A stretch of DNA of 48,540 nt from Desulfobacterales bacterium (GCA_020060085.1 JAGVAW010000034.1:1-48540), one strand, 5' to 3'; counted from the stretch's first letter, positions 18,314 through 41,650 are shown. The notes: generated from the sequence alone by a model not told the origin. Numbers and translations: made by a program.

Positions 18314-18371
18314 GCTTTTTTCCCTTCAGCCATCAAGGTTTCAGGTTATCGTTGTTTTGCGCTCCAAAAGG

Positions 18372-20009: not shown

Positions 20010-20044
20010 GGTCGCCTCTCCCTTCAAAGTCTGGCCAGGGTAAA

Positions 20045-25102: not shown

Positions 25103-25118
25103 GGGCACCCGGCTTGCA
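25103..25118 (+). promoter_or_regulatory. Sigma54 (-24/-12) promoter of operon B
   Basis: GGGCACCCGGCTTGCA, with GG at 25104..25105 and GC at 25116..25117, giving 12-nt spacing. It lies 36 nt upstream of the TusA-like start and divergent from the activator gene. Confidence 0.65.
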
Positions 25119-25153: not shown

Positions 25154-25396
25154 TTGGGAAGACAGGCAAAACAAATTCTGGATTTGAGGCGTTACATCCC
25201 GCCCCTTTCCCTGCTCAAGCTCACCGAAACCTTTCGGCACATGCGCTCCAATGGGGTTCTGGAAATCATGGGTCAGGACCCGGACACCTGGACGGATCTG
25301 TTCAAGGTGCTTCCATCAGGCTCCTACGAGCTTGTGGGCGTACAGGGAAAAATTGAAAACGGGGACGGCTACAAGGTGACAATAAGGAAAAAGTAA
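25154..25396 (+). CDS. TusA/SirA-fold small protein lacking the catalytic Cys (first gene of operon B)
   Basis: Translation ILDLRRYIPPLSLLKLTETF...VLEIMGQDPDTWTDLFKVLP is a paralog of 19764..20009. The start is a TTG, 6 nt after GGAGG. Confidence 0.6.
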   Translation: MGRQAKQILDLRRYIPPLSLLKLTETFRHMRSNGVLEIMGQDPDTWTDLFKVLPSGSYELVGVQGKIENGDGYKVTIRKK

Positions 25397-25416: not shown

Positions 25417-28400
25417 ATGTCCATCCGTATAGGCTGCTATGTCTGCCATTGCGGCATCAACATCGCCCACAAGGTAAGGGTTGCCGAGGTGGCTCAATAC
25501 GCACTTGGCCTTGAAGGCGTTGTGGTGGCAAGGGACTACAAGTTCATGTGCTCTGATCCGGGCCAGGAGATGATCGAAAAAGACATCCGTGAATTTGGTT
25601 TGAACAGGGTGGTGGTTGCCTCCTGCTCGCCCAGGCTGCACGAAAAAACCTTTCGAGGGGCCTGCGAGAGGGGCGGCATAAACCCCTATCTTTTTCAGAT
25701 GGCATCTGTGCGGGAGCAGGTTTCGTGGGTGACGGCAGACGAAAACGAAGCCACCAGCAAGGCCAAGCACCTTGTTAACGCTGCTGTGCGCCGGGTGGGG
25801 CAGCACCGGGAACTGGACAAGCGCGAGGTTGTTGTTCACCCGGATGTACTTGTGGTGGGCGGCGGAATTGCCGGAATGCAGGCGGCATTGGACATAGGGG
25901 CCTCCGGCCACAAGGCCTACCTTGTGGAAAAAAGCACAACCATCGGCGGCCACATGCTTCAGTTCGACAAAACCTTTCCAACCCTGGACTGCGCTGCCTG
26001 CATAGGCACCCCCAAAATGGTGGATGTGGCCCAGAACTCCTGCATTGAGCTTCTTTCGTACAGTCAGGTGGAGGAGGTCAGCGGCTACATCGGCAACTAC
26101 ACGGTCAAAGTCCGCCGGAATCCCCGCTTCATCAAGGAAGGCATATGCACAGGATGCGGTGAATGCACCAAGGTCTGTCCGGTCATACGGCCAAGCGAAT
26201 GGGACGAGAATCTTGCAACCCGCAAGGCCATTTACCGCTCCTTCCCCCAGGCCGTGCCCATAACCTACTGCATAGAAAAAAAGGATCGCGCCCCCTGTGT
26301 CAGCGCCTGCCCGGCAGGAATCAATGTCCAGGGCTATGTTCAGCTTATAGGCCAGGGAAAATACCGCGAAGCAATAGAGCTTATACGCCAGAGGATGCCT
26401 CTGCCGGGGATTCTGGGCCGGGTCTGCCCTCATCCCTGCGAGGAAAAATGCCGCCGCAGCGAGCTTGATTCGCCTGTGGCAATCCGCGACCTCAAACGCT
26501 TTGCCGCTGATCAGGTGGACATTAAATCCCTGCCCCGGCCTTTAATTTCCGAGCGGCCCGAAAAGGTGGCCATCATAGGTTCAGGCCCAGGCGGGCTTTC
26601 GGCTGCTTATTTTCTGCGGCTTGCAGGTTTTTCTGTAAGCATTTTTGAAAAGCTCTCCGTGCTTGGCGGAATGTTAAGGGTTGGCATTCCAGATTATCGC
26701 CTGCCAGCGTGCGTTCTGGATAAAGAGATAGAGGCCATTCTGGATCTGGGCGTGAAAGTTGAGACAAACAAGGCTCTGGGAAAAGATTACTCCTTAAAGG
26801 AGCTTGAAGAAAAAGGCTTTGCCGCGGTTCTTCTGGCAATAGGCGCCCACGGGGGTGCGGATATGGAAATCCCCGGAGAAAAGGATTGTGAAAATGTCAT
26901 CAATGCCGTGGATTTTTTGCGTGAGATAAACCTTGGTTCCCGCAAAAAGCCCGGCGATAGGGTCGCAATAATAGGCGGCGGCAATGTGGCCATTGATGCG
27001 GCCCGCATGGCCAAAAGGCTTGGCTGCAAAGAGGTGACTGTTGTTTACCGCCGCACCCGCGAGCAGATGCCTGCTTATAAAGATGAAATTGAAGGTGCCC
27101 TGGCCGAGGGCGTTAAAATGCTCTTTCTCTGCGCACCCTTACAGGTGGAAGGTGCAGGGGGGCGCGCCACGGGGCTGAAATGCCAGCGCACGGAGCTTGG
27201 CCTGCCGGACAAAAGCGGGCGCAGAAGCCCCCAGCCTGTAGAAGGCTCGGAATTTGTAATTGAGTGCGATGCAATAATTCCGGCAATCGGCCAGAAAATG
27301 GATGCCCCCTGGGCAGGGGGCGACAGCAGCCTTGCAGTTAACAGGCGTGGCTACTTTGAGGCAGACCCCAATACCATGCAGACAGGCAACGACTTTGTGT
27401 TTGCCTGCGGAGATGCGGTAACAGGCCCGGCCACGGTTATTGAAGCTGTTGCAGGGGGCCGCCGGGCAGCCCTTGCCATTGCCGATTATTTGAACAGGGG
27501 CAAAAGGGCCTCCCTTGCCGGGCAGGAGGAACAAAAAGCAGAAAAAGAGCCGGAATGGGCGGCCATTCCTCCTGGCCTTGCCCCCCAAAAGCGCGCCCAG
27601 GCCGAGCACCTTGACCCAAAAACCCGGATTTTGGGCTTTGACGAGGTTGAAGCAGCCTTTGGTGAGGATGCGGCAAGGGCAGAGGCGTCCCGTTGCCTTA
27701 ACTGCGGCGTATGTTCCGAGTGCATGGAATGCGTAAAGGTCTGCGAGGCTAAGGCCATTGATCACTCCATGAAACCGGAAATCCGCGAAATCAAGGTGGG
27801 CAGCATAATTCTGGCAACAGGCTACGATCTTTTTGACCCATCGGTTTTAAAGCCTTTGGGTTATGGCGTTTATCCTAATGTTTTCACAAGCCTGGAGTTC
27901 GAACGCCTCTCCAATGCCACAGGCCCAACAGGCGGGGAGATTTTGATTCGCGACCAAAACGGGCAACTGACCAAAAAACCCAAAAGCGTTGCAATATGCC
28001 ATTGCGTGGGCAGCCGGGATGTGAACCACCACGAATACTGCTCACGGGTGTGCTGTATGTATGCGCTCAAATACGGACACCTCATAAAAGAAAAGGTGGG
28101 GCACAACACGCAGATATATGACTTTTTTATTGATATGCGCTGCTTTGGCAAGGGCTACGAGGAGTTTTTCCGGCGCTGTCAGGAAGAGGGCAGCCAGTTT
28201 ATAAGGGGCAAGGTGGCCCAGGTTACAGACAGGGCAAAAACTCCCGAAGAAGAAGGAAAGCTAATAGCCATAGCAGAGGACACCCTGCTTGGCCGGCGCG
28301 TGCGCGTGCCTGTGGACATGGTCATCCTTTGCCCTGCAATGGAGGCCCGCAAAGATGCACCTGCTGTTGGGCGGATTTTCGGGGTAAACCAGGGCGCGGA

Positions 28401-28827
28401 CGGCTTTTTTCTGGAAGAGCATCCCAAGCTTGGGCCGCTCAACACGGCAACGGACGGCGTTTTTCTGGCCGGTGCCTGCCAGTCTCCCAAAGACATTCCC
28501 GACACTGTGGCCCAGGCCTCCGGCGCGGCGGCCAAGGCCCTTTCCCTTGCAACAAAGGGCAGGGTTCCGGTTCCTTCGGCCATTTCGTGGATTGACCCGG
28601 ATATGTGCGCGGGCTGCAAAACCTGCATAGGCCTTTGTCCTTACGGCGCAATCGAGTTTGACGAGTTTGCCCAGGTTTCGGTGGTAAACGAGGCGGTATG
28701 CAAGGGCTGCGGAAGCTGTTCGGGCTTCTGCCCCTCCGGTGCAGCCCAGGTGAAGCACTTCAACAAAAAGCAGGTCTTTGCAGAGTTCGAGGGCATGATG
28801 GAAGGCCTGTGTGCAACCAAAAACTGA
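25417..28827 (+). CDS. HdrA-like flavoprotein fused with a GltD-type NAD(P)H-binding module (HdrL-like, 1136 aa)
   Basis: HdrA N-domain IGCYVCHCGINIA, FAD fold VLVVGGGIAGMQAALDIGASGH, and ferredoxin motif CTGCGECTKVCP. It is then GltD-like (CVSACPAGINVQGY...GRVCPHPCEEKCRR, KVAIIGSGPGGLSAAYFL, VAIIGGGNVAIDAAR). It returns to HdrA-like CHCVGSR...CSRVCC, followed by CAGCKTCIGLCP and CKGCGSCSGFCP. Confidence 0.85.
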   Translation: MSIRIGCYVCHCGINIAHKVRVAEVAQYALGLEGVVVARDYKFMCSDPGQEMIEKDIREFGLNRVVVASCSPRLHEKTFRGACERGGINPYLFQMASVREQVSWVTADENEATSKAKHLVNAAVRRVGQHRELDKREVVVHPDVLVVGGGIAGMQAALDIGASGHKAYLVEKSTTIGGHMLQFDKTFPTLDCAACIGTPKMVDVAQNSCIELLSYSQVEEVSGYIGNYTVKVRRNPRFIKEGICTGCGECTKVCPVIRPSEWDENLATRKAIYRSFPQAVPITYCIEKKDRAPCVSACPAGINVQGYVQLIGQGKYREAIELIRQRMPLPGILGRVCPHPCEEKCRRSELDSPVAIRDLKRFAADQVDIKSLPRPLISERPEKVAIIGSGPGGLSAAYFLRLAGFSVSIFEKLSVLGGMLRVGIPDYRLPACVLDKEIEAILDLGVKVETNKALGKDYSLKELEEKGFAAVLLAIGAHGGADMEIPGEKDCENVINAVDFLREINLGSRKKPGDRVAIIGGGNVAIDAARMAKRLGCKEVTVVYRRTREQMPAYKDEIEGALAEGVKMLFLCAPLQVEGAGGRATGLKCQRTELGLPDKSGRRSPQPVEGSEFVIECDAIIPAIGQKMDAPWAGGDSSLAVNRRGYFEADPNTMQTGNDFVFACGDAVTGPATVIEAVAGGRRAALAIADYLNRGKRASLAGQEEQKAEKEPEWAAIPPGLAPQKRAQAEHLDPKTRILGFDEVEAAFGEDAARAEASRCLNCGVCSECMECVKVCEAKAIDHSMKPEIREIKVGSIILATGYDLFDPSVLKPLGYGVYPNVFTSLEFERLSNATGPTGGEILIRDQNGQLTKKPKSVAICHCVGSRDVNHHEYCSRVCCMYALKYGHLIKEKVGHNTQIYDFFIDMRCFGKGYEEFFRRCQEEGSQFIRGKVAQVTDRAKTPEEEGKLIAIAEDTLLGRRVRVPVDMVILCPAMEARKDAPAVGRIFGVNQGADGFFLEEHPKLGPLNTATDGVFLAGACQSPKDIPDTVAQASGAAAKALSLATKGRVPVPSAISWIDPDMCAGCKTCIGLCPYGAIEFDEFAQVSVVNEAVCKGCGSCSGFCPSGAAQVKHFNKKQVFAEFEGMMEGLCATKN

Positions 28828-28846
28828 CAAGAAAAGGAAACCCTTT

Positions 28847-29290
28847 ATGGAAAGCCAACAGGAAAACAGGCAGGATTTTGAGCCTTTCATAGTCGCCTTT
28901 GTCTGCAACTGGTGCACCTATACAGCAGCAGACCTGGCCGGAACAAGCAGGCTGCAAATTCCAAAGAATGTTCACTTAATCCGGGTAATGTGCACAGGCA
29001 TGGTGGACAGCCAGTACATAATAAAGGCACTTCTGGAAGGCGCGGACGGCGTGCTTGTGAGCGGCTGCCACCCCGGCGACTGCCATTACATAAACGGCAA
29101 TTTTAAGGCAAGGCGCCGTATGAAGCTTTTACAGGCAATGCTCGCAACAATGGGCATAGAGCCGCAAAGGCTGCGCCTTACCTGGATAGGGGCAAGTGAC
29201 GGAATACAGTTTGCCAAAACCATGCGCGAGCTTGTGGAGCAGGTGCGCCAGCTTGGCCCCAACCCCGGCGCTGCCCGCTCTGTTGCATAA
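28847..29290 (+). CDS. mvhD: MvhD/FlpD-like [2Fe-2S] protein (second copy)
   Basis: Translation EPFIVAFVCNWCTYTAADLAGTSRLQIPKNVHLIRVMCTGMVD...GADGVLVSGCHPGDCHY. The ATG at 28847 is preceded by AAAGGAAA. Confidence 0.85.
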   Translation: MESQQENRQDFEPFIVAFVCNWCTYTAADLAGTSRLQIPKNVHLIRVMCTGMVDSQYIIKALLEGADGVLVSGCHPGDCHYINGNFKARRRMKLLQAMLATMGIEPQRLRLTWIGASDGIQFAKTMRELVEQVRQLGPNPGAARSVA

Positions 29291-29341: not shown

Positions 29342-30499
29342 ATGGCCCAAACCGCAACAATAGATGCGCCGAATAAGGATATTTCGCTGGGTATAAAAAA
29401 CTTCCTCGGCCAGCTTTTAAAATCCGGCCTTGCAGAAGCTGTGCTGCTTCCTTTGCGCCAGCCCGGATCAACAACCGTGATGCCCGGCCTTGTAACAGAC
29501 CCGGATGCCCTGGAGCAGGCAGACCTTTTGGCCCCTGTTGCTCCTTTGTCCGCAGCCCGCATGGCTGCAAGGCTCACCCGCAGGTCAACTGGCAAACCTG
29601 TGGCTGCGGTGCTGCGCCCCTGCGAGGTCCGGGCCTTTATCGAGCTTGTAAAGTTCAACCAGGCAAAAGCGGAGGACATTCTTCTTATAAGTGCGGACTG
29701 CGCTGGCGTTATGTCCAACAAGGATTACGGCACCTTTGCCGCAGCAGAGGCAAGCCCTCCCGGAGAGCGGTTCTGGAAGGCTGCGGGCAGGGGAGACGCA
29801 ACGCAGGTGGACGGCTTTTCCCTGGCCTCGGCCTGCAAGGTCTGCGAACAGCCATTCTCTTCAAGCGCTGACATAAGCCTTGGTATTCTGGGCGCAGATG
29901 GTTCTGTTGGCATTCCAGCAACTGCCAACACGCAAAAGGGCGAAGATGCCCTCAAAAAGCTTGGCCTTGACCAATCTCCACCAAATAAGGCTCACCAGAA
30001 AGTCCTTTCAATGCTTGTTGAAAGGCGCAGCCAGGCAAAACAGGCGCTGTTTGCCACAATGGAAGAAAAGGTCAACAGCCTTGGAGCTTTGAATAAATAT
30101 TTTGAAAACTGCGTCAACTGCTACAACTGCCGGGTAGCCTGCCCCATCTGCTATTGCAGGGAATGCGTTTTTTTAACCGATGCCTTTGATCATGATCCAC
30201 CCCTTTACCTTAATTGGGCTTTTAGGAACAAGGCAATCAAAATGCCTACAGACACGGCCTTTTTCCACCTCACGCGGCTTGCCCACATGAGCACTTCCTG
30301 TGTTGGCTGCGGCCAGTGCACAAACGCCTGCCCAAACGACATTCCTGTGGCAGACCTTTTCATCAGGGTATCTGCTGCAACCCAAAAGGCCTTTGAATAC
30401 CAGCCGGGGCAAAGCCTGGAGGAAAAGCCGCCCCTGGCGGTTTTTGAGGCTGACGAGTTTGGAGAGGCTGTGGGCATAAAAAGCAAGGCTGCATCCTGA
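29342..30499 (+). CDS. FrhB/FdhB-like Fe-S (flavo)protein with 2x[4Fe-4S] motifs
   Basis: Cys motifs CVNCYNCRVACPICYC and CVGCGQCTNACP. The N-terminal part (VAAVLRPCEVRAFIELVK...LLISADCAG) resembles the F420-hydrogenase beta family. The family call is tentative. Confidence 0.5.
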   Translation: MAQTATIDAPNKDISLGIKNFLGQLLKSGLAEAVLLPLRQPGSTTVMPGLVTDPDALEQADLLAPVAPLSAARMAARLTRRSTGKPVAAVLRPCEVRAFIELVKFNQAKAEDILLISADCAGVMSNKDYGTFAAAEASPPGERFWKAAGRGDATQVDGFSLASACKVCEQPFSSSADISLGILGADGSVGIPATANTQKGEDALKKLGLDQSPPNKAHQKVLSMLVERRSQAKQALFATMEEKVNSLGALNKYFENCVNCYNCRVACPICYCRECVFLTDAFDHDPPLYLNWAFRNKAIKMPTDTAFFHLTRLAHMSTSCVGCGQCTNACPNDIPVADLFIRVSAATQKAFEYQPGQSLEEKPPLAVFEADEFGEAVGIKSKAAS

Positions 30500-30556: not shown

Positions 30557-33500
30557 ATGTCATTGACAGAGCAGAAAATAGGCAGGGCACTTGTGGTTGG
30601 GGCAGGGGTGGGCGGAATCCGCGCAGCCCTGGACTTGGCCCAGAGCGGATACAGGGTGACCCTCATTGAAAAGGAAGCCCACACAGGCGGCATTCTTGCC
30701 AAGCTGGACAGGCAGTTTCCAACAGACCGCTGCGGCATGTGCAAGATGCTGCCGACAATAAAAAGGGATGCTGTGTCCCAGCATTGCCTTCGCAGGGGCC
30801 TTTTCCACGAGAACATTGAAATAATTACCGGAGCCAGCCTGCTTGCCCTGGAAGGAACTCCGGGAAATTTTTCGGCCCGCATTCAGGAAAACCCCCGATG
30901 GGTGGATGCAGACCTATGCACAGGCTGCGGCCTTTGCGAGCAGGTTTGCCCTGTGGAAATAAAAAACCCCTTCAACCAGCACATGGGGCTTTGCAAGGCC
31001 ATTCATCTGCCCACCCCGCACTCAATTCCCAACTCCTATGTAATTGACACAACAGCCTGCACCCGCTGCGGAGAATGCGAAAAGGTCTGCCCCACAGGGG
31101 CCATCCGCATAAGCTGGCAGGACAGGGAGAGATTTCGCGTTCTGGTGGTGGATGATGAGCTTATTGTCCGAAGCTCCCTTGAAGCCTGGCTTTCAAAAGA
31201 GGCCGGTTTCAGCGCAGATACTGCCGGCTCCGGCGAGGAGGCCCTGGAACTTCTCGGCACAAACAGCTACCAGGTGATGTTTCTGGACATAAAGATGCCA
31301 GGCATGGACGGTATGGAGGTTCTGGAAAAGGCAAAGGGAATCTCCCCGGACACCGCTGTTGTAATGATGACAGCCTATGCCACGGTGGAAACCGCTGTGG
31401 AGGCCATGAAAATAGGGGCACTGGACTATCTGGTAAAGCCCTTTGATGCGGAATCGGTTCTGCCCAAAGTCAATTCCATTTACGAAGCCCTGCAGCTTTC
31501 CACAGCCCGCAAACTGGATGTGGGGGCCGTGGTTTTGTGCGGCGGAGTGAGCTATTTCGACCCTTCCACCGGCAAAGACACTTTTTGCTATGGCGCTTCC
31601 AAAAATGTGGTCACAAGCCTTGAGTTCGAGCGGATGTTAAGCTCGTGCGGCCCCTTTGAAGGCAAGCTGCTGCGGCCCGATAACTTAAAGCCCGTGCAGA
31701 AAGTGGCCTTTATCCAGTGTGTCGGGTCCCGCGATATTGGCCTGAATGCCGATTTCTGCTCAAGCGCCTGCTGCGCCTTTGCAGTAAAGGAGGCAAGGCT
31801 TGCCGTGGAGCAGTCCAACAGCCAGGTGGAGGCCGCCATTTTTTACATGGATATGCGCGCCTACCAAAAGCCCCTTGAAAGCTATTGCCAGGATGCCCGC
31901 GAGCAGTACGGCGTGCGCTTTGTAAAAAGCCGGGTGCATTCGGTTATTGCGGATAAAGACAACAACTGCATTTTGCGCTATCCATCTCCCCAGGACGGCT
32001 CCATGCAGGAGGAGAGCTTTGACATGGTGGTTCTGGCTGTGGGCCAGCGCCCGGCAAAGGCCAGCCGCGAGCTTGCAGACATGCTTGAGCTGCCTGTAAA
32101 CGAATTTGGCTTTATAAAAACCCTGCCCTTTTCCTGCTGCGAGACAGAAAAACCCGGAATCTTTGCTGGCGGCTCCTTTACGGGCTTGAAGGATATAAAC
32201 GAATCCCTCATCTGCGCGGGTGCGGCAGCCCAAGGGGCATCCCTTGCGCTTCATGGAGCAGGCGGAAGCCTTGCCCCTGTTGCAAAGGCAATTAGGCCCG
32301 ACCCGGAGCTTCTGCGCGCGCTTCCGTCAGTTTTTATTGCTCTTTGCACCTGCAACAACAAACTTGGCAGGGTTGAAGATGAAAAGGCCCTTGCCGATAA
32401 ACTCAAATATCAGCCCTGCGTAAAAAAGGTGCATGCCTTTGAGAGGCTTTGCACAAGCAGCGGGTTTGATGAGCTTGTTGAAGCTGTAAAAAAATCCGGG
32501 GCAAACCGGCTGCTGGTGGGCACCTGCCTGCCCCATCTGCACGAAAGCCGCATAATTGAGCTTGCCCGCACCCTTAAGGTGGATCGGGCCTGCGTGGAAG
32601 TGACAGATATCTTTGCGCCAGCAAACAGGGATGGGCAGCAAGGCGAACCCAAAGGCCTTTCCGGCTCATCAGAGGTTTTGAGCATCCTGCTTTCAGGCAT
32701 TGCCCGGCTTAAAAGGGTCAGGCCCCATCCCCTGCCGACAATTCCGGTCACTCAACAGGCGCTGATAATCGGCGGGGGAATTGCAGGAATAACAGCCGCC
32801 CTTGCAATTGCAGACCAGGGCTTTGAGGTGGAGCTTGTGGAAAAGGGCCAAAGGCTCGGCGGCAACCTCTCTTGGATAAAGCGCACCATAGAAGGCCTTG
32901 AAACCGCCCCCCTGCTGGAAGAAACCCTTGGCAGGCTGGAAAAGCATCCGCTTATAACCCTGCACACCCAGGCAGGTGTTTTGGCCACAACAGGGAGTAT
33001 AGGCTCCTTTGAAAGCCGCGTGGCAACCAATAACGGCGAGCACACAATTGCCCACGGAGTCTGCATTCTGGCCACCGGAGCCGATGAAGCGCCTGTGAAG
33101 GGCTTTGGCTATGGCCTTGCCGAATCGGTGATGACCCAAAAGGAGTGGGAAAGCGCTCTTGAAAAGAACAGCCAGGAGGCTTCAAACCTGGAATCAATTG
33201 TTTTCATCCAATGCGCCGGGTGCCGCAGTGAAGAAAGAAACTACTGTGCGCGGGTCTGCTGCGCCACCACCCTTAAGCAGGCCCTTTATATAAAAGTGCA
33301 AAACCCCTCTTCCGCCGTTTTCGTTCTTTATCGGGACATGATGGCCTACGGCCAGATGGAGTCCTATTACACCCAGGCCCGGAGAATGGGCGTGATTTTT
33401 ATCCCCTATAAGAAAGACTGCCCACCGTCCGTGGAAAAAAAGGATGAAGGCCTTTTTGTTACCGCCTTTGACCCGATTCTGCAAAAGGATCTCTGCATAA

Positions 33501-33994
33501 GCGCAGACAGGGTGATTTTGGCCGCAGGCCTTGCACCAGAACTGCCGGAAGACCTTGCAGCAGGCCTGGGAATACAAATTGACGAGCATGGATTCTTTAA
33601 GGAAGCCCAATTCAAGTGGCAGCCCGTGGAATCGGCCACCAGCGGCTTTTTTGCCTGCGGAGCAGTGCTTGGTCCAAGAAACATAAGCGAGTCAATAGCT
33701 TCGGCCAAAGCTGCGGCGTCAAGGGCGCTTGCCCTTCTTACAAAGGAGAGCATTACCGGGGGCCGGATAAGCGCCTCTGTGCGGCCAAGCCTTTGCAGCC
33801 TGTGCGAGCGCTGCATTGAGGCCTGCCCCTATGGCGCGCGGACATTGGATACAGAGAATGAAAAAATCCTGGTCAACCCGGCCCTGTGCCAGGGCTGCGG
33901 CTCTTGTGTGACGGCCTGCCCCAATGGAGCCTCGGTGCTGGAGGGTTTTTTAAGGGAGCAGATGCTCGAAACCATTGATGCGGCCTTTGCCTGA
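30557..33994 (+). CDS. Tandem HdrA-like flavoprotein with an inserted CheY-type receiver domain (1145 aa)
   Basis: It is collinear with 14308..17358 (ALVVGAGVGGIRAALDLAQSGY, CTGCGLCEQVCP, CTRCGECEKVCP, QCVGSRD...CSSACC, ALIIGGGIAGITAALAIADQGF, QCAGCRS...CARVCC, CSLCERCIEACP, CQGCGSCVTACP). It also carries a REC block at residues 193..312. Confidence 0.85.
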   Translation: MSLTEQKIGRALVVGAGVGGIRAALDLAQSGYRVTLIEKEAHTGGILAKLDRQFPTDRCGMCKMLPTIKRDAVSQHCLRRGLFHENIEIITGASLLALEGTPGNFSARIQENPRWVDADLCTGCGLCEQVCPVEIKNPFNQHMGLCKAIHLPTPHSIPNSYVIDTTACTRCGECEKVCPTGAIRISWQDRERFRVLVVDDELIVRSSLEAWLSKEAGFSADTAGSGEEALELLGTNSYQVMFLDIKMPGMDGMEVLEKAKGISPDTAVVMMTAYATVETAVEAMKIGALDYLVKPFDAESVLPKVNSIYEALQLSTARKLDVGAVVLCGGVSYFDPSTGKDTFCYGASKNVVTSLEFERMLSSCGPFEGKLLRPDNLKPVQKVAFIQCVGSRDIGLNADFCSSACCAFAVKEARLAVEQSNSQVEAAIFYMDMRAYQKPLESYCQDAREQYGVRFVKSRVHSVIADKDNNCILRYPSPQDGSMQEESFDMVVLAVGQRPAKASRELADMLELPVNEFGFIKTLPFSCCETEKPGIFAGGSFTGLKDINESLICAGAAAQGASLALHGAGGSLAPVAKAIRPDPELLRALPSVFIALCTCNNKLGRVEDEKALADKLKYQPCVKKVHAFERLCTSSGFDELVEAVKKSGANRLLVGTCLPHLHESRIIELARTLKVDRACVEVTDIFAPANRDGQQGEPKGLSGSSEVLSILLSGIARLKRVRPHPLPTIPVTQQALIIGGGIAGITAALAIADQGFEVELVEKGQRLGGNLSWIKRTIEGLETAPLLEETLGRLEKHPLITLHTQAGVLATTGSIGSFESRVATNNGEHTIAHGVCILATGADEAPVKGFGYGLAESVMTQKEWESALEKNSQEASNLESIVFIQCAGCRSEERNYCARVCCATTLKQALYIKVQNPSSAVFVLYRDMMAYGQMESYYTQARRMGVIFIPYKKDCPPSVEKKDEGLFVTAFDPILQKDLCISADRVILAAGLAPELPEDLAAGLGIQIDEHGFFKEAQFKWQPVESATSGFFACGAVLGPRNISESIASAKAAASRALALLTKESITGGRISASVRPSLCSLCERCIEACPYGARTLDTENEKILVNPALCQGCGSCVTACPNGASVLEGFLREQMLETIDAAFA
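31133..31492 (+). other. REC (phospho-acceptor receiver) domain embedded in the HdrA-like ORF
   Basis: Translation FRVLVVDDELIVRSSLEAWL...YQVMFLDIKMPGMDGMEVLEK...AVVMMTAYATVETAVEAMKIGALDYLVKPF. All canonical REC residues are present: D199, D200, D244, T272 and K294. Confidence 0.85.
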
Positions 33995-34023: not shown

Positions 34024-34587
34024 ATGATACCAGAAGAGCGGCCATTTGTTGCACCGGACAAATACCACGAGCTTGAAGGCGTGCAGAAGATGCTTGCCGC
34101 CTGCATTCAATGCGGCACATGTTCAGGCTCGTGCCCCAATGCCTTTGCAATGGATGTCACCCCAAGAACCCTGTGGCGCATGGTGTTAAGGGGGGAAAAA
34201 GAGGCAATTTTTGCGACAAGGACCTTCATCTTGTGCTCATCCTGCTACTCCTGCACCCTGCGCTGCCCGCGCGGCCTGCCCCTTACCGAGGCAATGGGCG
34301 CATTGAAGCAGATAGCCTCCCGTGAGGGCCTTGCTCCGTACAAGGCAAGCACCCGCTTCTATGCAAGCTTTCTGGACAGCGTGCGCCGCCACGGCAGGGT
34401 TAGGGAAGGAGAGATGATGAGCCTTTACTTTATGTCCATGAAAAACCCGCTTCTGCCCCTGCAATTTGCGTCCCTGGGCATGAAACTCATGCTTAAGGGC
34501 AAGGTGGGCGCACCCTTTCCCACAAGGGGAAAAAGACCTTTGGAAGCACTTTTCAACAAGGTCATGCAACTGGAGAAAAACCCATGA
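34024..34587 (+). CDS. hdrC: HdrC-like heterodisulfide reductase subunit C
   Basis: Motifs CIQCGTCSGSCP and CSSCYSCTLRCP, at typical HdrC size. RBS AAGGAAG lies upstream. Confidence 0.8.
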   Translation: MIPEERPFVAPDKYHELEGVQKMLAACIQCGTCSGSCPNAFAMDVTPRTLWRMVLRGEKEAIFATRTFILCSSCYSCTLRCPRGLPLTEAMGALKQIASREGLAPYKASTRFYASFLDSVRRHGRVREGEMMSLYFMSMKNPLLPLQFASLGMKLMLKGKVGAPFPTRGKRPLEALFNKVMQLEKNP

Positions 34588-35492
34588 AATACTTTTATTA
34601 TCCGGGCTGCTCCCTGGAGGGCACAGCCCAGGAATACAGCCTTTCCACAACAGCGCTTCTGGCAGCATTGGGAGGCGAGATTGAGGAGCTGCCCGACTGG
34701 AACTGCTGCGGGGCAACGGCTGCCGAGTCCGTAAGCCGCCTGCTTTGTCTGGCGCTGCCGGCCCGTAACCTTGCCCTTGCAGAAAAGGCTGTGCCCGGCC
34801 AGGACATACTGGTTCCGTGCAGTGCCTGCTATTTGAACATGAGGCGGGCCTGGGACAAGGTTCGCCACGACCCGGCCACCCGCAGTCAGATAAACCAGAC
34901 CCTTGAAGAGGAGGGGCTTGCTGTTTCCGGCTCAACAAAGGTGCGCCACCTTTTGGATGTGCTTTGCCTGGATTTTGGCGCTGATGCTGTTTTTAAAAGG
35001 CTTCAACGCTCCCTGGCAGGCCTTGTTGTGGCCCCCTACTACGGGTGCCAGTGCTTGCGGCCATATCCGGTTTTCGATGACCCCGAAGCACCATCCTGCA
35101 TGGAGCCTCTCATACAGGCCACCGGCGCAAAGGTGCATCCCTGGAGCATGGGTGCCGTGTGCTGCGGGGCATCCCACATGACCACAAAAAAGGAGGTTGG
35201 CCTTGCCCTTGTGGGGGAGATTTTGGATGACGCCAAAGGCGCGGATGTGATTGTAACCGTCTGCCCCATGTGCCAGATGAATCTTGAGGCCCACCAGAAA
35301 AAAATCTCCAGACAAAGGGGCAAAGACCTTTCCATAAGCATACTCTATCTTCCCCAGCTTCTGGGGATGGCCCTTGGCCTGCCGGAAAAGGATTTGGGGC
35401 TGAAGTTGAATCTGGGCATAGCCCCCGGCTTTATGGAAAAACTGCGCTCGCCCCTTATGGCTTCCAAAACAAAAAAGGCGGATGCAGCATGA
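34584..35492 (+). CDS. hdrB: HdrB-like heterodisulfide reductase subunit B (two CCG domains)
   Basis: Motifs YYPGCSLEG...WNCCGA...VPCSACY and YYGCQC...AVCCGA...VCPMCQ. It overlaps hdrC by 4 nt. Confidence 0.85.
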   Translation: MKYFYYPGCSLEGTAQEYSLSTTALLAALGGEIEELPDWNCCGATAAESVSRLLCLALPARNLALAEKAVPGQDILVPCSACYLNMRRAWDKVRHDPATRSQINQTLEEEGLAVSGSTKVRHLLDVLCLDFGADAVFKRLQRSLAGLVVAPYYGCQCLRPYPVFDDPEAPSCMEPLIQATGAKVHPWSMGAVCCGASHMTTKKEVGLALVGEILDDAKGADVIVTVCPMCQMNLEAHQKKISRQRGKDLSISILYLPQLLGMALGLPEKDLGLKLNLGIAPGFMEKLRSPLMASKTKKADAA

Positions 35493-35531: not shown

Positions 35532-37367
35532 TTGCAAAAAGGACTGCAAAACAAGGGCTGGACCCTGGCTTTAAAGGCAGGAATTGCAGCCGGAATAATC
35601 CTGATGGCAGGCGCGGCCATCTTGTGGCAGGGCCTTATCTGTTTTGGGCCAGGTTCCGCTGCCGGGCAGGGGGGCTTTCCCCTTTGGGCTGCAATAGCTT
35701 TTTTTATCTTTGCCGTAATCGCAATGACGGGTATTTTCCGACTGTTTTTTTCCCGCCACATATTGCACCCTGCCGGATACCTGATGGAGTGGCTGGAGCA
35801 AATGACCCAGGGCCGCCCGGCCAGGCCTGTTGATGGGGCTATCAAAGGCCCCCTTGAGGAGCTTGCCGGTGCCATAAGCCGCATGGGCGATAAAACCGTG
35901 CAAAAGCAAAAGGAGGCCAACCGCCAGAGGGATGAGTACCAGTATCTTTTTGAGCAGGTTCCCTGCCTCATCACCGTGCAGGCACGGGATTTCCGGCTCA
36001 TCCGCTACAACCAGGAATTTGCGGAAAAGTTCCACCCCCAGCCCGACGACTACTGCTATCACGCCTACAAGGGCCGAAGTGAGAAATGCGAAAACTGTCC
36101 GGTGGAAAGGGCCTTTGAAGACGGACAGACCCATATAACCGAAGAAGCCGCGTTAAGGCCGGACGGCAGCGTCACTCACTGGATAGCAAAGGCCGCCCCT
36201 GTGCGGGATGCTTCTGGCCGCATAGTTGCGGCAATGGAAATGAATCTGGACATAACCCGGCAGAAGCTTCTGGAAAAAAAGCTTTCCTTTTCCGAAAAAA
36301 ACTACCGCGAGATATTCAACAACATCCCCAACCCCGTGTTTGTTCTGGACAGGGCGGACCTGACCATTCTGGACTGCAACCAGAGCGTAAAAGCTGTTTA
36401 TGGCCATGAAAAGGCAGAGGTCATTGGCAGAGACTTTCTTGAGCTTTTTGTAAATGACAGACAGGTCACAGCCCTTGAACTGCCTAAAAAATCCCTTTGG
36501 GAAAAGGTTCGCCAAACCAAAAAGGACAACAGCACCCTTTTTGCAGAGCTTTCCGTAACGCCATCAGAATACGGCGGCAGGCAGGCCCTTCTTGTAATTG
36601 CAAATGACATAACAGGAAAGCTTGAGGCTGAAAGGCAGCTTATTCAGGCAGGCAAAATGGCCACCGTGGGGCAGATGGCCACAGGGGTTGCCCATGAGCT
36701 TAATCAGCCCCTTTCGGTCATCAAGACAGGCAGCAGCTTTCTGGCCCGCAAAATTGAGCGCAACGAGCCTGTTGACGCCCAGACCATGGCCCGCCTGCTT
36801 TCAAAAATAGATTCAAATGTGGATCGGGCTACCAAGATAATCACCCACATGCGCCAGTTTGGCAGAATGAGCGATATGCAGCTTGCCCAGGTGAATGTGA
36901 ATGATGTTTTGGCAAAGGCTTCGGAAATGTTTAGCCAGCAGCTTAAAGTAAGGGGCATTGAAGTCAAATGGGAGCTTGAAAAGGACATACCCGTTGTGGA
37001 GGCAGACCCGGATCGGCTTGAGCAGGTGTTCATAAACCTTGTATTGAACGCGCGGGATGCCATTGAAAGCAAGTGGGAGGACGGGAAACCCGGCAAAAAT
37101 GGCGACTCCATCATTATAAGCACTCTGAAGGATAAAAAGTTCGTTACCATAAAGGTTGCAGACACCGGGCCTGGCATACCGGAGCACATTGCAGATAAAA
37201 TCTTCGAGCCTTTTTTCACCACCAAGGAGGTGGGCAGGGGTTCGGGGCTGGGTCTTTCCATAAGCTACGGCATAATAAAAGACTGCAAGGGGGATATCTC
37301 GGTACAATCCCGGCCCGGAAAAGGGACGGTTTTCACCATCCGGATACCCCAGAAGGAATATTCATGA
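35532..37367 (+). CDS. Membrane sensor histidine kinase (2 TM - linker - 2 PAS - HisKA - HATPase)
   Basis: Hydrophobic segments [23 protein letters not shown] and [22 protein letters not shown]-box [38 protein letters not shown]. The start is a TTG, so the exact start is uncertain. Confidence 0.85.
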
Positions 37368-38524
37368 AAAACGGCCCCATCTTAATAGTGGATGACGAGG
37401 CGGACATCCGTGAAACCCTGGAGATATTTCTCCTGGATGCTGGCTACATGGTTCTTACCGCTGAAAACGGCGAAAAGGCCCTTGAGATTTACGGCCAGTC
37501 GCCAACCCCCATAACCATTGCGGATATAAAGATGCCTGCAATGGACGGCATTGAGCTTTTAAACCGCATAAAGCGCATAAACCCGGAGGCGGAAGTCATA
37601 ATGATAACCGGCCACGGGGACATGGATCTTGCCATAAAGAGCCTTAAAAGCCAGGCCACGGATTTCATCACCAAGCCCATACGCATTGAAGCCCTGGAAG
37701 TGGCCTTAAACCGCGCCAGGGAGCGCATACTCACCCGGCAGATGCTTAAAGAGTACACCCAGAACCTGGAAAGGCTGCTTCAGGAAAAGCTTGAGCTGCA
37801 AGATCACCTCTCCCAGCTTGGCGTGATGATAGGTTCCATATCCCACAGCATAAAGGGTCTTTTAACAGGCCTGGACGGGGGCCTTTACATGCTGGAATGC
37901 GCCATCAAGGAAGGCAATGCCAAGGATGTGGACCAGAATATGGAGGTGATAAAAGGCGTGGCAGACAAAATCCGCAGGCTGGTTTTGGACATTCTGCTCT
38001 ACGCCAAAAAAAGGAGTCTGGAATGGGAGGCTGTTGATGTTGCAGGCTTTGTAAAGGATTTGGCAAGCGTTGTGGATCGCAAGATAAAGGACTCCGGCAT
38101 TCGTTTTGAATGGAACATGGACCCGGTCGTGGGAAGAGCGGAAATGGATCCGGGCCTTCTCCATTGTGCGCTTATAAATCTGATTGACAATGCAGTTGAC
38201 GCCTGCCTCAAGGATGTCAAAAAGGAGCACAGGGTAAGCCTGACTGTGAAGGAGGAAAAGGGCTTTATCGTGTTTGTGGTCTCCGACAACGGAACAGGCA
38301 TGGACATGGACACAGTGGCCCGCCTGTTTACACTCTTTTTTTCCACAAAAGGCAAAAAAGGGACAGGTTTTGGCCTTTTCATCTCAAAAAAAATTGTGGA
38401 GCAGCATGGCGGCTCAATAACTGTGGATTCCCATCCCGGAAGAGGCTCGCGTTTTTCCATAAGGCTGCCCCGAATTCTGCCCGAAGAAATAAAGCAGGAA
38501 CAACCTGAAAAATTAGATGATTAA
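37364..38524 (+). CDS. Hybrid REC - histidine kinase
   Basis: Motifs ILIVDDEADIRE...ITIADIKMPAMDG...MITGHG...ITKP. H-box-like SISHSIKG. NLIDNAVDAC, DNGTGMD, GTGFGLFISKKIV. It overlaps the upstream kinase gene by 4 nt. Confidence 0.85.
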   Translation: MKNGPILIVDDEADIRETLEIFLLDAGYMVLTAENGEKALEIYGQSPTPITIADIKMPAMDGIELLNRIKRINPEAEVIMITGHGDMDLAIKSLKSQATDFITKPIRIEALEVALNRARERILTRQMLKEYTQNLERLLQEKLELQDHLSQLGVMIGSISHSIKGLLTGLDGGLYMLECAIKEGNAKDVDQNMEVIKGVADKIRRLVLDILLYAKKRSLEWEAVDVAGFVKDLASVVDRKIKDSGIRFEWNMDPVVGRAEMDPGLLHCALINLIDNAVDACLKDVKKEHRVSLTVKEEKGFIVFVVSDNGTGMDMDTVARLFTLFFSTKGKKGTGFGLFISKKIVEQHGGSITVDSHPGRGSRFSIRLPRILPEEIKQEQPEKLDD

Positions 38525-38587: not shown

Positions 38588-40771
38588 TTATTCCTGTTGC
38601 AGCCTTCGGGTAAGGCGGGTGCGGCGTAGTGAGGGGGTATTGTTGGCAATGGCAATGCTCACAGCCTTTGGGCTGCCAACCAGCACAAGCAGTTGTTTGG
38701 CGCGGGTTATGCCCGTGTAAAGCAGGTTCCGCTGAAGCATGACAAAGTGGCTGTTCGATAGGAGCAAAATGACAGCCTGGTATTCCGAACCCTGGCTCTT
38801 GTGCACGGAGATGGCGTAAGCCAGGGTGATTTCATCAAGCTCGTTAAAAGAGTATTCAACAAGCTGATTGTCAAAAGCAATGGTGAGCAGGCCCGCATCA
38901 GCCTCAATGCTTTTTATTGTGCCTATGTCTCCGTTAAAAACCTCCTTGGAGTAGTTGTTTTTAAGCTGCATCACCTTGTCGCCCACCTTCAGGCGGCGGC
39001 CCATTTTTTCTATGTAAAATGTTGCCGGGTTAAGGGCCTCCTGCAGGGCATTGTTGAGGTTTATGGTGCCTGCAGGGCCTTTGTGCATGGGGGTAAGCAC
39101 CTGGATTTGGGTCATGGGGTCCAGCCCAAAGGCCGATGGAATGCGCTCCTTGCAAAGGGCAAGAGTTTTGCTCACAAGGTTGGCTTGGTTTTCTTCGGCT
39201 ATGAAGTAAAAGTCCGGGCGGTCATTTTGGGAGTCGGCATTGGGGGGGGATGGCTGACTTGGGGCCTCCAGAAGCAAATCCATGCCCTGGTTCACCCGGT
39301 GTGCATTTTGCACAATAAGGCTTTTTGCCACCTGCCGGAAAATGCGCGAAAGTTTGAAAATCGGCACAAGGCCTGAAGCAATGATGTCCTTCAAAGCATT
39401 GCCCGGCCCAACAGGCGGAAGCTGGGACACATCCCCCACAAGTACGAGCACGGCAGTCATGGGAATGGCCCTTTGCAGGTGGAACATCAGGAAGGTGTCC
39501 ACCATGCTGGCCTCGTCAATGATCACAACCTCCGTATCAAGAGGGTCATCCTCATTTTTCAAAAAGGTGTCCCGCATAAAATCGTAGTGCAAAAGCCGGT
39601 GTATGGTTGTGGCCTCGCGGCCTGTCACCTCCCCCAGTCGCTTGGCGGCCCGGCCTGTTGGCGCGGCAAGCATCACCCTTTGGCCTGCTGCATCGTAAAT
39701 CTGCAAAATGGAGCGCACAAGGGTTGTCTTGCCTGTGCCCGGCCCGCCGGTGATAACGGAAAAGCGGTTTTGGGTAACCTTGTGGGCCACTTCAAGCTGC
39801 TGGTCCGAAAGGGCAATGGCCAGCCGGTTGTGGACCCTTTCAAGAATGTCCTTGTCTGAAAGGGAAAGGCCCGTAAACGGCACGGACAAAAAGGCCCTTA
39901 TGCGCCGTGCCAGGCCCCTTTCCACATGAAAAAAGGTGGGCAGATAAACATCCGGCTCCTTTGGGGAATCCTGCCTGTCCAGAATGACTGCATCCCGGCC
40001 TGCAAGGCGGGATATGGCTTCTTGGATGACGGATTCGTCTGCTTCAAGAAGATTGGCAGCCTGCCTGACCAGCTCGCCTTGGGGCAAGTAGAAATGCCCG
40101 TCAGATGCGGATTCGCCCAAGGCGTGAAGAACACCTGCGTCCATGCGGGCCGGAGCATCCTTGGGAATGCCAAGCTTTGCGCCTATGGCATCTGCTGTGG
40201 CAAAGCCAAAGCCGCTAACCTCAAGGGCTAGGCGGTAGGGATTTTCCCGCAATACCACCGCTGCATTTTGGCCGTATGCTTCAAAAATCTTGGCGCTGTG
40301 GCCAGGGCCTATGCCGTGGGCGGCCATAAACATCATGGTCTCTCGCTGTGTGCGCTTTTCCTGCCAGTCTTCCATTATTGTTTTGAGTGTGGATGGGCCT
40401 ATCCCATGAACATTCAAGAGCCTTTTTGGCTCCGTGTCCAGAATGAGGATGGTGTCCTGGCCAAAATAATCCACAATGCGCGAAGCAAGAGCCGGGCCGA
40501 TGCCCTTTATCATGCCTGAACCCAGGTACTCCTTTATGCCGTCAAGGGTGCCGGGCATGATGACAGAGTAAGATTCAACCCTGAACTGCTCGCCAAAGCG
40601 GTCATGGGTTTCCCATCGTCCATCAAGACGAAGGCGCTCTCCAACATTCAGGCGGCCAAGGCTGCCAAGAATTGGCACAATACCATCCTTGGTGTCCAGC
40701 CGCGCTATTACAAAGAGGTTTTCCTCATTAAAATAGGTGATGCTGCAAACCCGGCCTTCAATCTGGGGCAT
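38588..40771 (-). CDS. recD2: RecD2-type SF1B ATP-dependent DNA helicase
   Basis: An HhH-rich N-terminal half (IKGIGPALASRIV, VHGIGPSTLKTI, AHGIGPGHSAKI). Walker A ITGGPGTGKTT, Walker B VIIDEASMVD, and C-terminal AYAISVHKSQGSEY...LLYTGITRAK. Confidence 0.85.
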   Translation of the reverse strand: MPQIEGRVCSITYFNEENLFVIARLDTKDGIVPILGSLGRLNVGERLRLDGRWETHDRFGEQFRVESYSVIMPGTLDGIKEYLGSGMIKGIGPALASRIVDYFGQDTILILDTEPKRLLNVHGIGPSTLKTIMEDWQEKRTQRETMMFMAAHGIGPGHSAKIFEAYGQNAAVVLRENPYRLALEVSGFGFATADAIGAKLGIPKDAPARMDAGVLHALGESASDGHFYLPQGELVRQAANLLEADESVIQEAISRLAGRDAVILDRQDSPKEPDVYLPTFFHVERGLARRIRAFLSVPFTGLSLSDKDILERVHNRLAIALSDQQLEVAHKVTQNRFSVITGGPGTGKTTLVRSILQIYDAAGQRVMLAAPTGRAAKRLGEVTGREATTIHRLLHYDFMRDTFLKNEDDPLDTEVVIIDEASMVDTFLMFHLQRAIPMTAVLVLVGDVSQLPPVGPGNALKDIIASGLVPIFKLSRIFRQVAKSLIVQNAHRVNQGMDLLLEAPSQPSPPNADSQNDRPDFYFIAEENQANLVSKTLALCKERIPSAFGLDPMTQIQVLTPMHKGPAGTINLNNALQEALNPATFYIEKMGRRLKVGDKVMQLKNNYSKEVFNGDIGTIKSIEADAGLLTIAFDNQLVEYSFNELDEITLAYAISVHKSQGSEYQAVILLLSNSHFVMLQRNLLYTGITRAKQLLVLVGSPKAVSIAIANNTPSLRRTRLTRRLQQE

Positions 40772-40774
40772 AAT

Positions 40775-41332
40775 TCACCCTTGCCTGCCCTTGCCGCATA
40801 TAAAATGGGCGGCTTCCAAAAGGTCATTGGCAACAAAATCCACCTTAATGCCAAGCTCTGCATACTGGTGCTGGGCCTTCAAACCATTGCCAGTCCTCAC
40901 AAGAACAGCCCTTGCAAGGCTCGCCCGGTTGGCTGCCTCCATGTCCTTTAGGCTGTCGCCCACCATTACGGCATCAGAGGGCATTATGCCATGCTTTGCC
41001 ATTGCCTGCAAAATAAGCCCCGGCGCAGGCTTGCGGCAGTTGCAGGCTTCTTCGGGCCTGTGGGGGCAATAAAATATTTCCTTTATGCACCCTCCGGCCT
41101 CTTCTATGCCGCTTGCCATGCGTCTGTGCATATCCTCCAGGGTTTTAACGCTCACCATGCCCCTGTTGATTACAGACTGGTTTGTCACCACAAAAACATC
41201 AAGGCCCACATTGCACAGCAAAGCAATGGCCTGCCTGCTGGAAGGCAAAAACTCAAACTCTTCCCAACTTTTTATGTAGTCGGGCGAGTCACGGTTAATC
41301 ACCCCATCCCTGTCCAAAAAAACAGCTTTCAT
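40775..41332 (-). CDS. gmhB: HAD-IIIA phosphatase, D,D-heptose 1,7-bisphosphate phosphatase (GmhB)-like
   Basis: Motifs AVFLDRDGVIN, VVTNQS, CxC motif CNCRKPAPG, and MVGDSLKDMEAA. The ATG at 41332 is preferred. The ORF track start at 41374 is a TTG. Confidence 0.7.
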   Translation of the reverse strand: MKAVFLDRDGVINRDSPDYIKSWEEFEFLPSSRQAIALLCNVGLDVFVVTNQSVINRGMVSVKTLEDMHRRMASGIEEAGGCIKEIFYCPHRPEEACNCRKPAPGLILQAMAKHGIMPSDAVMVGDSLKDMEAANRASLARAVLVRTGNGLKAQHQYAELGIKVDFVANDLLEAAHFICGKGRQG

Positions 41333-41650
41333 GTCTGCCTGCTTCAATGGTTGTTTGAAAAAACCCGGGTTCAAAAAGCCAAATAGCGCGCTCTTTATAT
41401 TTTATCAAGCCAAATCAGCATATTAAATGGCGATGGGCACTTTTTTTACAACCAATCCCTTATTTTGTCCCGGCAAATAAATTTTTTCGGCTTCCTTGCC
41501 GGGCGCTCCTTATTATGTTATTGCAAATTACATCAATTGTTGGAATAAGCTGATGGAAAAGTCAGCGGCATGATATTGAAAGCTCCAAAACAGGTTATTC
41601 ATCCATATTCAGGTTGTTTTTTCTAACCCCCAGGCAGGAAGGTGAAAGCC

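Follow-up and report, generated by a model that had tools for sequence, protein, structure and literature searches.

A CheY-type receiver domain inserted into a tandem HdrA-like flavoprotein of a Desulfobacterales bacterium, and its possible role in the kinase-driven control of an Hdr-type complex

The stretch of DNA analysed here, referred to as the window, comprises 48,540 nucleotides of a Desulfobacterales bacterium (GCA_020060085.1 JAGVAW010000034.1:1-48540) and contains an operon for a complex of the heterodisulfide reductase (Hdr) type. One open reading frame (ORF) of this operon (30557..33994, + strand) encodes a tandem fused HdrA-like flavoprotein of 1145 amino acids with an internal receiver domain (REC), as indicated by Pfam matches to Pyr_redox_2, Fer4 and Response_reg and by the match to solved HdrA. 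The operon make-up proposed in the initial annotation, namely HdrL-like, MvhD, FrhB-like, HdrA-REC and HdrCB proteins followed by two kinases, is borne out by Pfam. HdrA-REC is most likely a response regulator that has the enzyme as its output, and the locus most likely represents a case of kinase-driven, post-translational control of a putatively electron-bifurcating Hdr-type complex.

The receiver lies at nucleotides 31133..31492 (+ strand), which correspond to residues 193-312, and is recognised by Pfam, by alignment with CheY, by the fold predicted with AlphaFold2 and by the invariance of its residues. The Pfam model Response_reg (PF00072) covers residues 195-304 (hidden Markov model positions 1-109 of 111, E 5.4e-29) and scores 101 bits, where the gathering cut-off is 30.2 bits. 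BLASTP against E. coli CheY gives 37% identity (E 2e-20) and pairs D12/D13 of CheY with D199/D200, the acceptor D57 with D244, T87 with T272, Y106 with Y291 and K109 with K294. The receiver call and the catalytic residues D199/D200, D244, T272 and K294 of the initial annotation are thereby confirmed. The AlphaFold2 model of the whole protein, built on 64 homologues, has a mean predicted local distance difference test (pLDDT) score of 80.1 and a predicted TM-score of 0.80; over the REC the block means of pLDDT are ~71-92. Residues 194-313 adopt the canonical (βα)5 fold in this model, with strands β1 at 194-198, β2 at 219-223, β3 at 240-244, β4 at 267-272 and β5 at 288-293, and helices α1 at 202-215, α2 at 226-235, α3 at 252-262, α4 at 277-286 and α5 at 298-313. 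In the Foldseek output HdrA matches dominate and solved CheY structures have no separate listing. The closest solved receivers are those of NtrC1 and the NtrC family (NtrC1, E 2.5e-21), and the best NCBIfam match of the domain is AtoC (E 8.4e-29, below the cut-off), but NtrC-, AtoC- and NtrC1-type regulators carry an AAA+ or helix-turn-helix domain after the REC, whereas HdrA-REC has neither. Judged by sequence and predicted fold, residues 193-312 constitute a complete, apparently phosphorylatable CheY-type receiver.

The protein that hosts this domain matches solved HdrA (8rvu) with an E value of 3.5e-117, and Foldseek comparison of the model with HdrA chains gives TMt values of 0.72 (8rvy_A) and 0.90 (8rvu_a). 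It consists of two units, both of which match a flavin adenine dinucleotide (FAD) domain with a GxGxxG motif and a [4Fe-4S]-binding Cys motif; all domains given below lie on the + strand. The N-unit starts with the first part of a thioredoxin-reductase-like FAD domain (residues 1-115, 30557..30901, delimited by the 8rvu alignment), where the sequence 'DRCGMC' aligns with 'LDCSMC' of 8rvu; its two cysteines, C59 and C62, are invariant in the homologue alignment, and through the 8rvu alignment C59 corresponds to Cys197 in HdrA of M. wolfeii, the residue by which the N-terminal cluster of the partner protomer is completed (PMC9012536). An inserted ferredoxin domain follows (residues 116-190, 30902..31126), with Fer4 matches at 115-133 and 161-184 and two complete CxxCxxCxxxCP motifs, whose cysteines C121/124/127/131 and C168/171/174/178 are invariant across the REC-bearing family. 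Beyond the receiver, the second part of the FAD domain (residues 318-570, 31508..32266, by the 8rvu alignment) contains the QCVGSR...CSSACC cluster motif, in which C388, C401, C405 and C406 are invariant in homologues. Between the two units lies a homologue of the HdrA N-terminal domain (residues 590-730, 32324..32746; query 590-771 aligned with 8rvu 12-190), with invariant C597, C599, C632 and C657. The C-unit comprises its own FAD domain (residues 735-1060, 32759..33736; Pyr_redox_2 from 735 and a match to the HdrA-like protein 6tjr over 735-1060), in which C886/897/901/902 are invariant, as well as a ferredoxin domain at the C terminus (residues 1073-1145, 33773..33991; Fer4_7 and Fer4_10 at 1076-1125, aligned with 8rvu 504-653). 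No inserted ferredoxin domain is found in the C-unit by Pfam or the HdrA alignment, and on reading its sequence no equivalent of Cys197 either. Each of these HdrA elements is therefore present once per polypeptide, the inserted ferredoxin domain and C59 in unit 1, the N-terminal domain as well as the ferredoxin domain at the C terminus in unit 2. The NCBIfam HdrA models NF041778, NF040770 and NF041891 give 658, 527 and 469 bits, their cut-offs being 1100, 1400 and 1300, respectively; since none of them reaches its cut-off, the protein is to be regarded as HdrA-like and not as the methanogen CoB-CoM heterodisulfide reductase enzyme. The same NCBIfam scan returned no dedicated curated family at cut-off for HdrA-REC.

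The site of the receiver is defined by two comparisons. Residues 153-321 of 8rvu align with query residues 10-188 and residues 326-512 with query residues 319-507, so that the REC breaks up a sequence that is continuous in HdrA. The window also encodes a REC-less paralogous tandem HdrA of 1016 amino acids (14308..17358, - strand, GTG start), which serves as the reference for the insertion: paralog residues 22-186 align with query residues 18-196 and residues 184-1011 with query residues 318-1144 at 36% identity, and the REC block is left unmatched by BLASTP. The single-block insertion at residues 193..312 described in the initial annotation thus holds. Its statement that the two proteins are collinear holds as regards the alignment on both sides of the REC, but the paralog lies on the minus strand with a GTG start and the CxxCxxCxxxCP block of the inserted ferredoxin domain is only partly shared, since the N-terminal half of the paralog has no Fer4 Pfam match in this region and, by eye, its second motif is lost. 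Taken together, the alignments describe the REC as a clean insertion at the C-terminal hinge of the inserted ferredoxin domain, between that domain and the FAD domain. In the AlphaFold2 model the stretch between the last Cys-Pro of the ferredoxin domain and β1 of the REC measures ~10 residues, and helix α5 of the REC is only 3 residues away from the next FAD-domain strand (317-322). In methanogen HdrA the inserted ferredoxin domain carries the low-potential branch, by which ferredoxin or polyferredoxin receives electrons from the bifurcating FAD (PMC9012536, PMC13518236); the fused polypeptide has a single domain of this low-potential exit type, and the REC is joined to its C-terminal end.

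The same architecture recurs in homologues. Clustered at 90% identity and drawn from NCBI, JGI, ENA and Logan, the best 120 clusters (1129-1175 amino acids) are 51-55% identical to HdrA-REC, with one at 90%, and PF00072 is found in 120/120; among them are sequences from the complete Desulfonema magnum chromosome and from an Olavius Delta-1 symbiont. D199, D200, D244, T272, Y291 and K294 are invariant in all 120 aligned sequences, and mean column conservation is 0.83 in the REC and 0.76-0.86 in the catalytic domains, a pattern that indicates purifying selection on the REC, conserved as strongly as the catalytic domains. Among the species-representative genomes scanned, ~33 loci have the full junction; by record title most belong to Desulfobacterales, Desulfosarcinaceae, Desulfococcaceae or Desulfobacula, for several the title says no more than Deltaproteobacteria or Pseudomonadota, and another two belong to Syntrophobacterales or Syntrophobacteraceae. 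That the junction is an artefact of assembly or gene calling, a worry already raised in the initial annotation, has next to no probability and is rejected: the same in-frame junction is found across the best 120 clusters, in ~33 genomes and in the complete D. magnum chromosome, the alignment of the 120 homologues has no frame break there, and the GC content is uniform across the insert.

An exhaustive profile search of representatives clustered at 50% identity detects a REC in 15 of the best 150 matches listed, 8 of these 15 being full-length; the other representatives are REC-less tandem HdrAs of ~1000 amino acids or forms of ~1500 amino acids. The REC-bearing proteins belong to one clade of 11 in a neighbour-joining tree, no more than a quick distance tree, which was made after removal of the REC columns. 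They would accordingly form a small clade inside a much larger family of REC-less tandem HdrAs.

The operon that encodes HdrA-REC ends with two kinase genes. HK1 (35532..37367, + strand) is, by Pfam, a histidine kinase with two PAS domains, HisKA and HATPase, and hydropathy predicts 2 N-terminal transmembrane helices, which would make it membrane-anchored. HK2 (37364..38524, + strand) combines Response_reg (99.7 bits), HisKA and HATPase_c; the two 3' histidine kinases reported initially are therefore both present, but the second is a REC-HisKA-HATPase hybrid and not a plain kinase. HK1 starts after a gap of 39 nucleotides, and the start of HK2 overlaps the HK1 stop by 4 nucleotides. An HK1 orthologue is adjacent in 22-23 of the 30 loci with full REC-HdrA (tblastn synteny), and an HK2 orthologue is usually next. 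Among the HK1 orthologues, the sensor region is 41-58% identical and the catalytic core 50-62%; for comparison, HK1 is 25-32% identical to the window's other kinases. The syntenic HK2 orthologues are 42-57% identical. The idea that HK1 and HK2 are duplicates of the kinases of the paralog operon was discarded, as identity between them is 25-27%, versus ~50% for orthologues across genomes.

The first PAS domain of HK1 contains a C-x10-C-x2-C motif (residues 172-190) that is invariant in all syntenic orthologues and may be a metal, Fe-S or thiol redox-sensing site. Among the loci retrieved (numbered with the prefix L), the motif is present in L002-L034, L039, L040, L043, L045 and L054. Kinases with this same motif elsewhere adjoin NtrC-type REC-AAA+ regulators beside HdrL/MvhD genes, e.g. 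in L039, L040 and L054, and where REC-AAA+ regulators adjoin Hdr genes in other genomes, their receivers share 43-60% identity with that of HdrA. Three loci (L041, L047 and L016) have REC-HdrA and lack the HK1/HK2 pair; in L041 and L047 its place is taken by an NtrC-type REC-AAA+ regulator and a kinase, and in L016 a REC lies beside a kinase core. The receivers of these three loci are 56-60% identical to the HdrA REC, and one kinase may there serve both a transcriptional receiver and the receiver embedded in the enzyme. The pairing of Cys-motif kinases with NtrC-type regulators and the similar receivers of L041, L047 and L016 suggest that the HdrA REC was recruited from an NtrC-type regulator of the sensor family to which HK1 belongs. 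The best NCBIfam matches point in the same direction, as AtoS and AtoC form a cognate pair of the NtrC family, and HK1 has AtoS and the HdrA REC has AtoC as best match, both below cut-off.

A third kinase, not counted in the initial annotation, lies just upstream of the operon (REC-PAS-HisKA-HATPase by Pfam, 21795..23474, + strand), together with two PAS-σ54 activators without a REC (20217..21611, + strand, and 23500..24900, - strand; Pfam), which are placed between the REC-HdrA operon and the paralog operon. A six-frame search of the window finds five REC domains, at ~31133, 37379, 21945, 9060(-) and 12186(-), and none of the five is fused to a DNA-binding domain, so the earlier statement that the window holds no DNA-binding response regulator stands. 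The three kinase cores and three REC domains at the locus, with no classical output domain, are typical of branched relays with sinks, and the paralog operon likewise has a stand-alone REC, a kinase and a REC-kinase. On these grounds the signal might run in reverse, with HdrA-REC as a sensor or sink of a multi-kinase phosphorelay: the redox or conformational state of the flavoprotein would determine how readily its REC takes up or gives off phosphate and would thereby tune the phosphate flow among HK1, HK2 and the REC-PAS kinase upstream, so that the enzyme reports the redox state of the cell and is not regulated by it. We regard this as rather improbable: a relay without another output has nothing to report to, the nearby σ54 activators carrying PAS and not REC, and both the invariant switch residues Y291 and T272 and the insertion at a hinge of the catalytic domains would be left without explanation.

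Intramolecular gating, in which phosphorylation regulates the enzyme itself, is the leading mechanism and is considered moderately probable. Its structural basis is the placement of the REC at the end of the ferredoxin domain, the short linkers and the position of the switch face. In receivers generally, the α4-β5-α5 face is the surface that changes on phosphorylation. In HdrA-REC, D244 would be phosphorylated by the operon kinases HK1 and HK2, directly or as a relay, and the rearrangement of α4-β5-α5 would be passed via helix α5 into the FAD-domain strand that follows 3 residues on, while on its other side the REC is joined to the ferredoxin domain by the ~10-residue linker. The position or accessibility of the two low-potential [4Fe-4S] clusters would thereby be altered, and the HdrL-MvhD-FrhB-like-HdrA-HdrCB complex would be switched or throttled after translation. 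In its most explicit form, a phosphorelay from a membrane kinase with a Cys-rich PAS, possibly through a REC-kinase step, to the acceptor D244 would directly switch the low-potential ferredoxin branch of an Hdr-type bifurcating complex on and off by means of a REC hinged to the inserted ferredoxin domain; this is put forward tentatively, as a possibility that we think somewhat doubtful. Of the interpretation given in the initial annotation, the structural part is fully supported, and the part on direct gating, which we infer, is strengthened by the invariance of the receiver residues, the synteny of the kinases, the likeness to AtoC/AtoS, the hinge position and the lack of a DNA-binding regulator.

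Phosphorylation could instead act on assembly, with the phosphorylated REC driving or breaking HdrA-HdrA dimerisation, or docking to HdrL/MvhD or to membrane-bound HK1. NtrC1-type receivers switch a dimer interface on phosphorylation, and it is NtrC1/NtrC among solved RECs, and AtoC in NCBIfam, that come closest to the HdrA REC; moreover, solved Hdr complexes are obligate dimers with a cluster common to both protomers (PMC9012536), the operon encodes two HdrA-type proteins (HdrL and HdrA-REC) that may need combining, and HK1 is membrane-anchored. This alternative is nevertheless deemed unlikely, because very short linkers favour tight coupling to the host domain over a freely dimerising module and the fused tandem brings its own pseudo-dimer partner, with C59 belonging to unit 1 and the N-terminal domain to unit 2. 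A complementary split of Cys197 and the N-terminal domain has been described in fused HdrA of anaerobic methanotrophic archaea (ANME), where it is read as an intramolecular heterodimer (Chadwick et al. 2022, PMC9012536). HdrA-REC has the same split, but the order of the units is reversed, the one without the N-terminal domain being first here. By analogy, this suggests that HdrA-REC is a fused, intramolecular pseudo-heterodimer.

Several observations weigh against regulation of the enzyme by phosphorylation, and some of them would fit a receiver that is a pseudo-receiver-like scaffold, stabilising or spacing the ferredoxin domain, for which phosphorylation is irrelevant. Within the clade of 11, P0125, the representative of a 50%-identity cluster, still has the domain in the same place, but its catalytic residues are degenerate (T272 to G, K294 to H; Pfam 24.7 bits, below the cut-off), and P0123, another such representative (1021 amino acids, junction intact), has no REC, so that the enzyme can exist without phospho-control. 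A single gain of the REC, followed by one loss (P0123) and one decay (P0125), is the simplest reading of the quick distance tree. The REC-HdrA of Desulfonema magnum (L001) has no kinases next to it, and that of L016 lacks the adjacent HK1/HK2 pair. The operon of the REC-less paralog likewise ends in a PAS-PAS kinase and a REC-PAS kinase, from which it follows that kinase adjacency is not specific to the fused REC. Insertions at this site have also arisen for other reasons, e.g. the NfnB-like inserts of HdrL and ANME-1 HdrA (PMC9012536). A mainly structural module is, even so, quite improbable: it is difficult to see why, without phospho-chemistry, six residues should be invariant in 120/120 sequences at 51-55% identity, the synteny of the kinases is strong, and the REC-less P0123 shows that the fold does not depend on the REC.

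Methanogen HdrA (HdrABC-MvhAGD, Fdh-Hdr-Fmd and Elp-Hdr; PDB 5ODC, 7BKB and 8RVU) has the same FAD fold and QC(V/I)GSR...CC motif, and the inserted 2x[4Fe-4S] ferredoxin, the N-terminal cluster and the C-terminal ferredoxin domains are common to both, with HdrB, HdrC and MvhD alongside. HdrA-REC differs in that it consists of two fused units that share out these domains and has an additional REC of 120 amino acids before the FAD domain; in contrast to the methanogens, the host seems to belong to a lineage of bacterial sulfate reducers, in which use of CoM-S-S-CoB is not expected. The ANME HdrA with an NfnB-like insert (PMC9012536) shows that a foreign domain can be accommodated in the inserted ferredoxin domain or next to it, but the domain inserted here is a signalling receiver and not a second flavoprotein, as it is in the ANME and HdrL inserts. 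Locus VIII of D. autotrophicum, hdrL/mvhD/fdhB/hdrA4/hdrCB, has the same gene order as the REC-HdrA operon and a neighbouring 'histidine kinase' and 'response regulator' (PMC2702500). Neither the ANME paper (PMC9012536) nor the D. autotrophicum paper (PMC2702500), HdrA4 included, mentions a REC inside HdrA, and none of the 11 architectures of an HdrA domain-architecture preprint (10.1101/2024.09.26.615249) has a REC.

Among two-component systems, response regulators with an enzymatic output are exemplified by the methylesterase CheB, the diguanylate cyclases PleD and WspR, and RpfG. HdrA-REC resembles the CheB/PleD type in that a canonical REC with the full Asp/Thr/Tyr/Lys set is joined to an enzyme, with a kinase nearby and no DNA-binding domain; the genetic linkage to a kinase is provided here by HK1 and HK2 in the same operon. 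However, the REC of the CheB/PleD type is an N-terminal module on a flexible linker, whereas that of HdrA-REC is internal (193-312 of 1145) in a redox subunit with several cofactors. Enzymatic response regulators and insertions or fusions in HdrA are thus both known, and the difference lies in the placement of a receiver inside a multi-cluster flavoprotein fold of the bifurcating type. The literature searched contains no description of a REC inside HdrA, nor of a response-regulator output of the redox or electron-bifurcation type. In the databases, REC-HdrA proteins go by the names 'response regulator', 'FAD-dependent oxidoreductase' and 'heterodisulfide reductase subunit A'. The claim of the initial annotation that no characterised example exists is in this sense upheld, but the architecture itself is already common in public sequence databases, where it is uncharacterised. 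A second, independent REC-flavoprotein fusion, with an NtrC-like receiver and followed by two further REC-containing ORFs, was observed in a metagenome-assembled genome of Dehalococcoidia (L042:7976-12135).

The remaining genes of the REC-HdrA operon, all on the + strand, are tightly packed, with gaps of -17 to 57 nucleotides. The operon is headed by a TusA-like ORF (25154..25396; TusA Pfam 32.1 bits, cut-off 28.6) without the catalytic Cys, since 'YIPPLS' stands in place of 'CP'. It is followed by an HdrL-like gene of 1136 amino acids (25417..28827; Pfam and NCBIfam), i.e. an HdrA with a GltD/NfnB-like insert, by MvhD (28811..29290; Pfam) and by a FrhB-like Fe-S protein (29342..30499; Pfam); the NCBIfam scan of these three upstream genes includes a PRK12771 match of 547 bits (cut-off 516), and their order is kept in related loci. 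Downstream of HdrA-REC are an HdrC-like gene (34024..34587; Pfam Fer4_8/9/17) and an HdrB-like gene with two CCG domains (34584..35492; Pfam CCG), the NCBIfam HdrC and HdrB matches being below cut-off. According to Pfam, the operon thus encodes every subunit type that an electron-bifurcating Hdr complex needs, namely HdrA, HdrB with two CCG domains, HdrC and MvhD. In a close, 90%-identical relative (L003:4853-8262), HdrL is called as two genes of 301 and 810 amino acids; the reading frame shifts at about position 5700 of L003, where a frameshift or a fault in the assembly is suspected.

Upstream of the operon, a sequence resembling a σ54-type -24/-12 promoter, GGGCACCCGGCTTGCA (25103..25118, + strand; pattern match with 1 mismatch), lies 36 nucleotides before the TusA-like ORF. 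The number of matches to this pattern in the window is not above chance (31 found, 51 expected), so that only the position of the site is suggestive. Orthologues of the upstream pair of REC-PAS kinase and PAS-σ54 activator occupy the same position in several related loci, e.g. L003, L007 and L024, and transcription of the operon is probably under separate control by the adjacent PAS-σ54 activator. A second σ54-type element with one mismatch is found at 20044..20059 (- strand), upstream of the paralog operon.

The paralog operon (7023..19697, - strand) looks like a methylene-tetrahydrofolate reductase cluster of the MetFV-Hdr type. Ordered in the direction of transcription, it encodes an HdrC-like protein (18960-19697), an HdrB-like CCG protein (18372-18896), a protein resembling methylene-tetrahydrofolate reductase (MTHFR; 17441-18313), the tandem HdrA, MetV/DUF5981 (13164-13832), MetF (12241-13167), a stand-alone single-domain REC protein of 142 amino acids (11806..12234; tblastn, ORF and Pfam, 86.9 bits), a 367-residue protein with a weak ACT match (10645-11748), a PAS-PAS kinase (9104-10645), a REC-PAS kinase (7636-9099) and a PocR sensory protein (7023-7535), all on the minus strand. 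Its combination of tandem HdrA with MetF, MetV, HdrB-like and HdrC-like proteins corresponds to that of the MetFV-HdrABC-MvhD methylene-tetrahydrofolate reductase operon of Moorella (cited within PMC6295475), in place of whose MetFV the REC operon has HdrL, FrhB-like and TusA-like proteins. As its two-component set is also without a DNA-binding output, the paralog operon can be read as an unfused version of the arrangement, with a stand-alone receiver on an Hdr operon. A recent fission or fusion event linking the stand-alone REC with the HdrA REC was rejected, as the two are only 28% identical. The flanks of the window (38588..48030 and 1..6066) appear unrelated to REC-HdrA; they encode a RecD2-type helicase (38588-40771, - strand), two methylmalonyl-CoA mutase genes (41642-45956), acyl-CoA dehydrogenases (1-2022) and, among others, a HAD hydrolase, an NAD-dependent epimerase, a NifU-like protein, two MinD/ParA-type Fe-S ATPases and a DUF134 protein.

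Energy conservation in anaerobes relies centrally on Hdr-type complexes, whose control is believed to lie in a conformational gating intrinsic to the enzyme. If the proposed control is true, HdrA-REC would add an external, signal-dependent layer on the low-potential exit of an Hdr complex and would be the first case in which electron bifurcation is controlled post-translationally by a kinase. Two-component systems would gain electron routing as a new class of response-regulator output, and the protein would be of note to those who study electron bifurcation and to those who study two-component signalling. For the complete-oxidising sulfate reducers, REC-HdrA offers an experimental handle on an Hdr cluster that is widespread and poorly understood.

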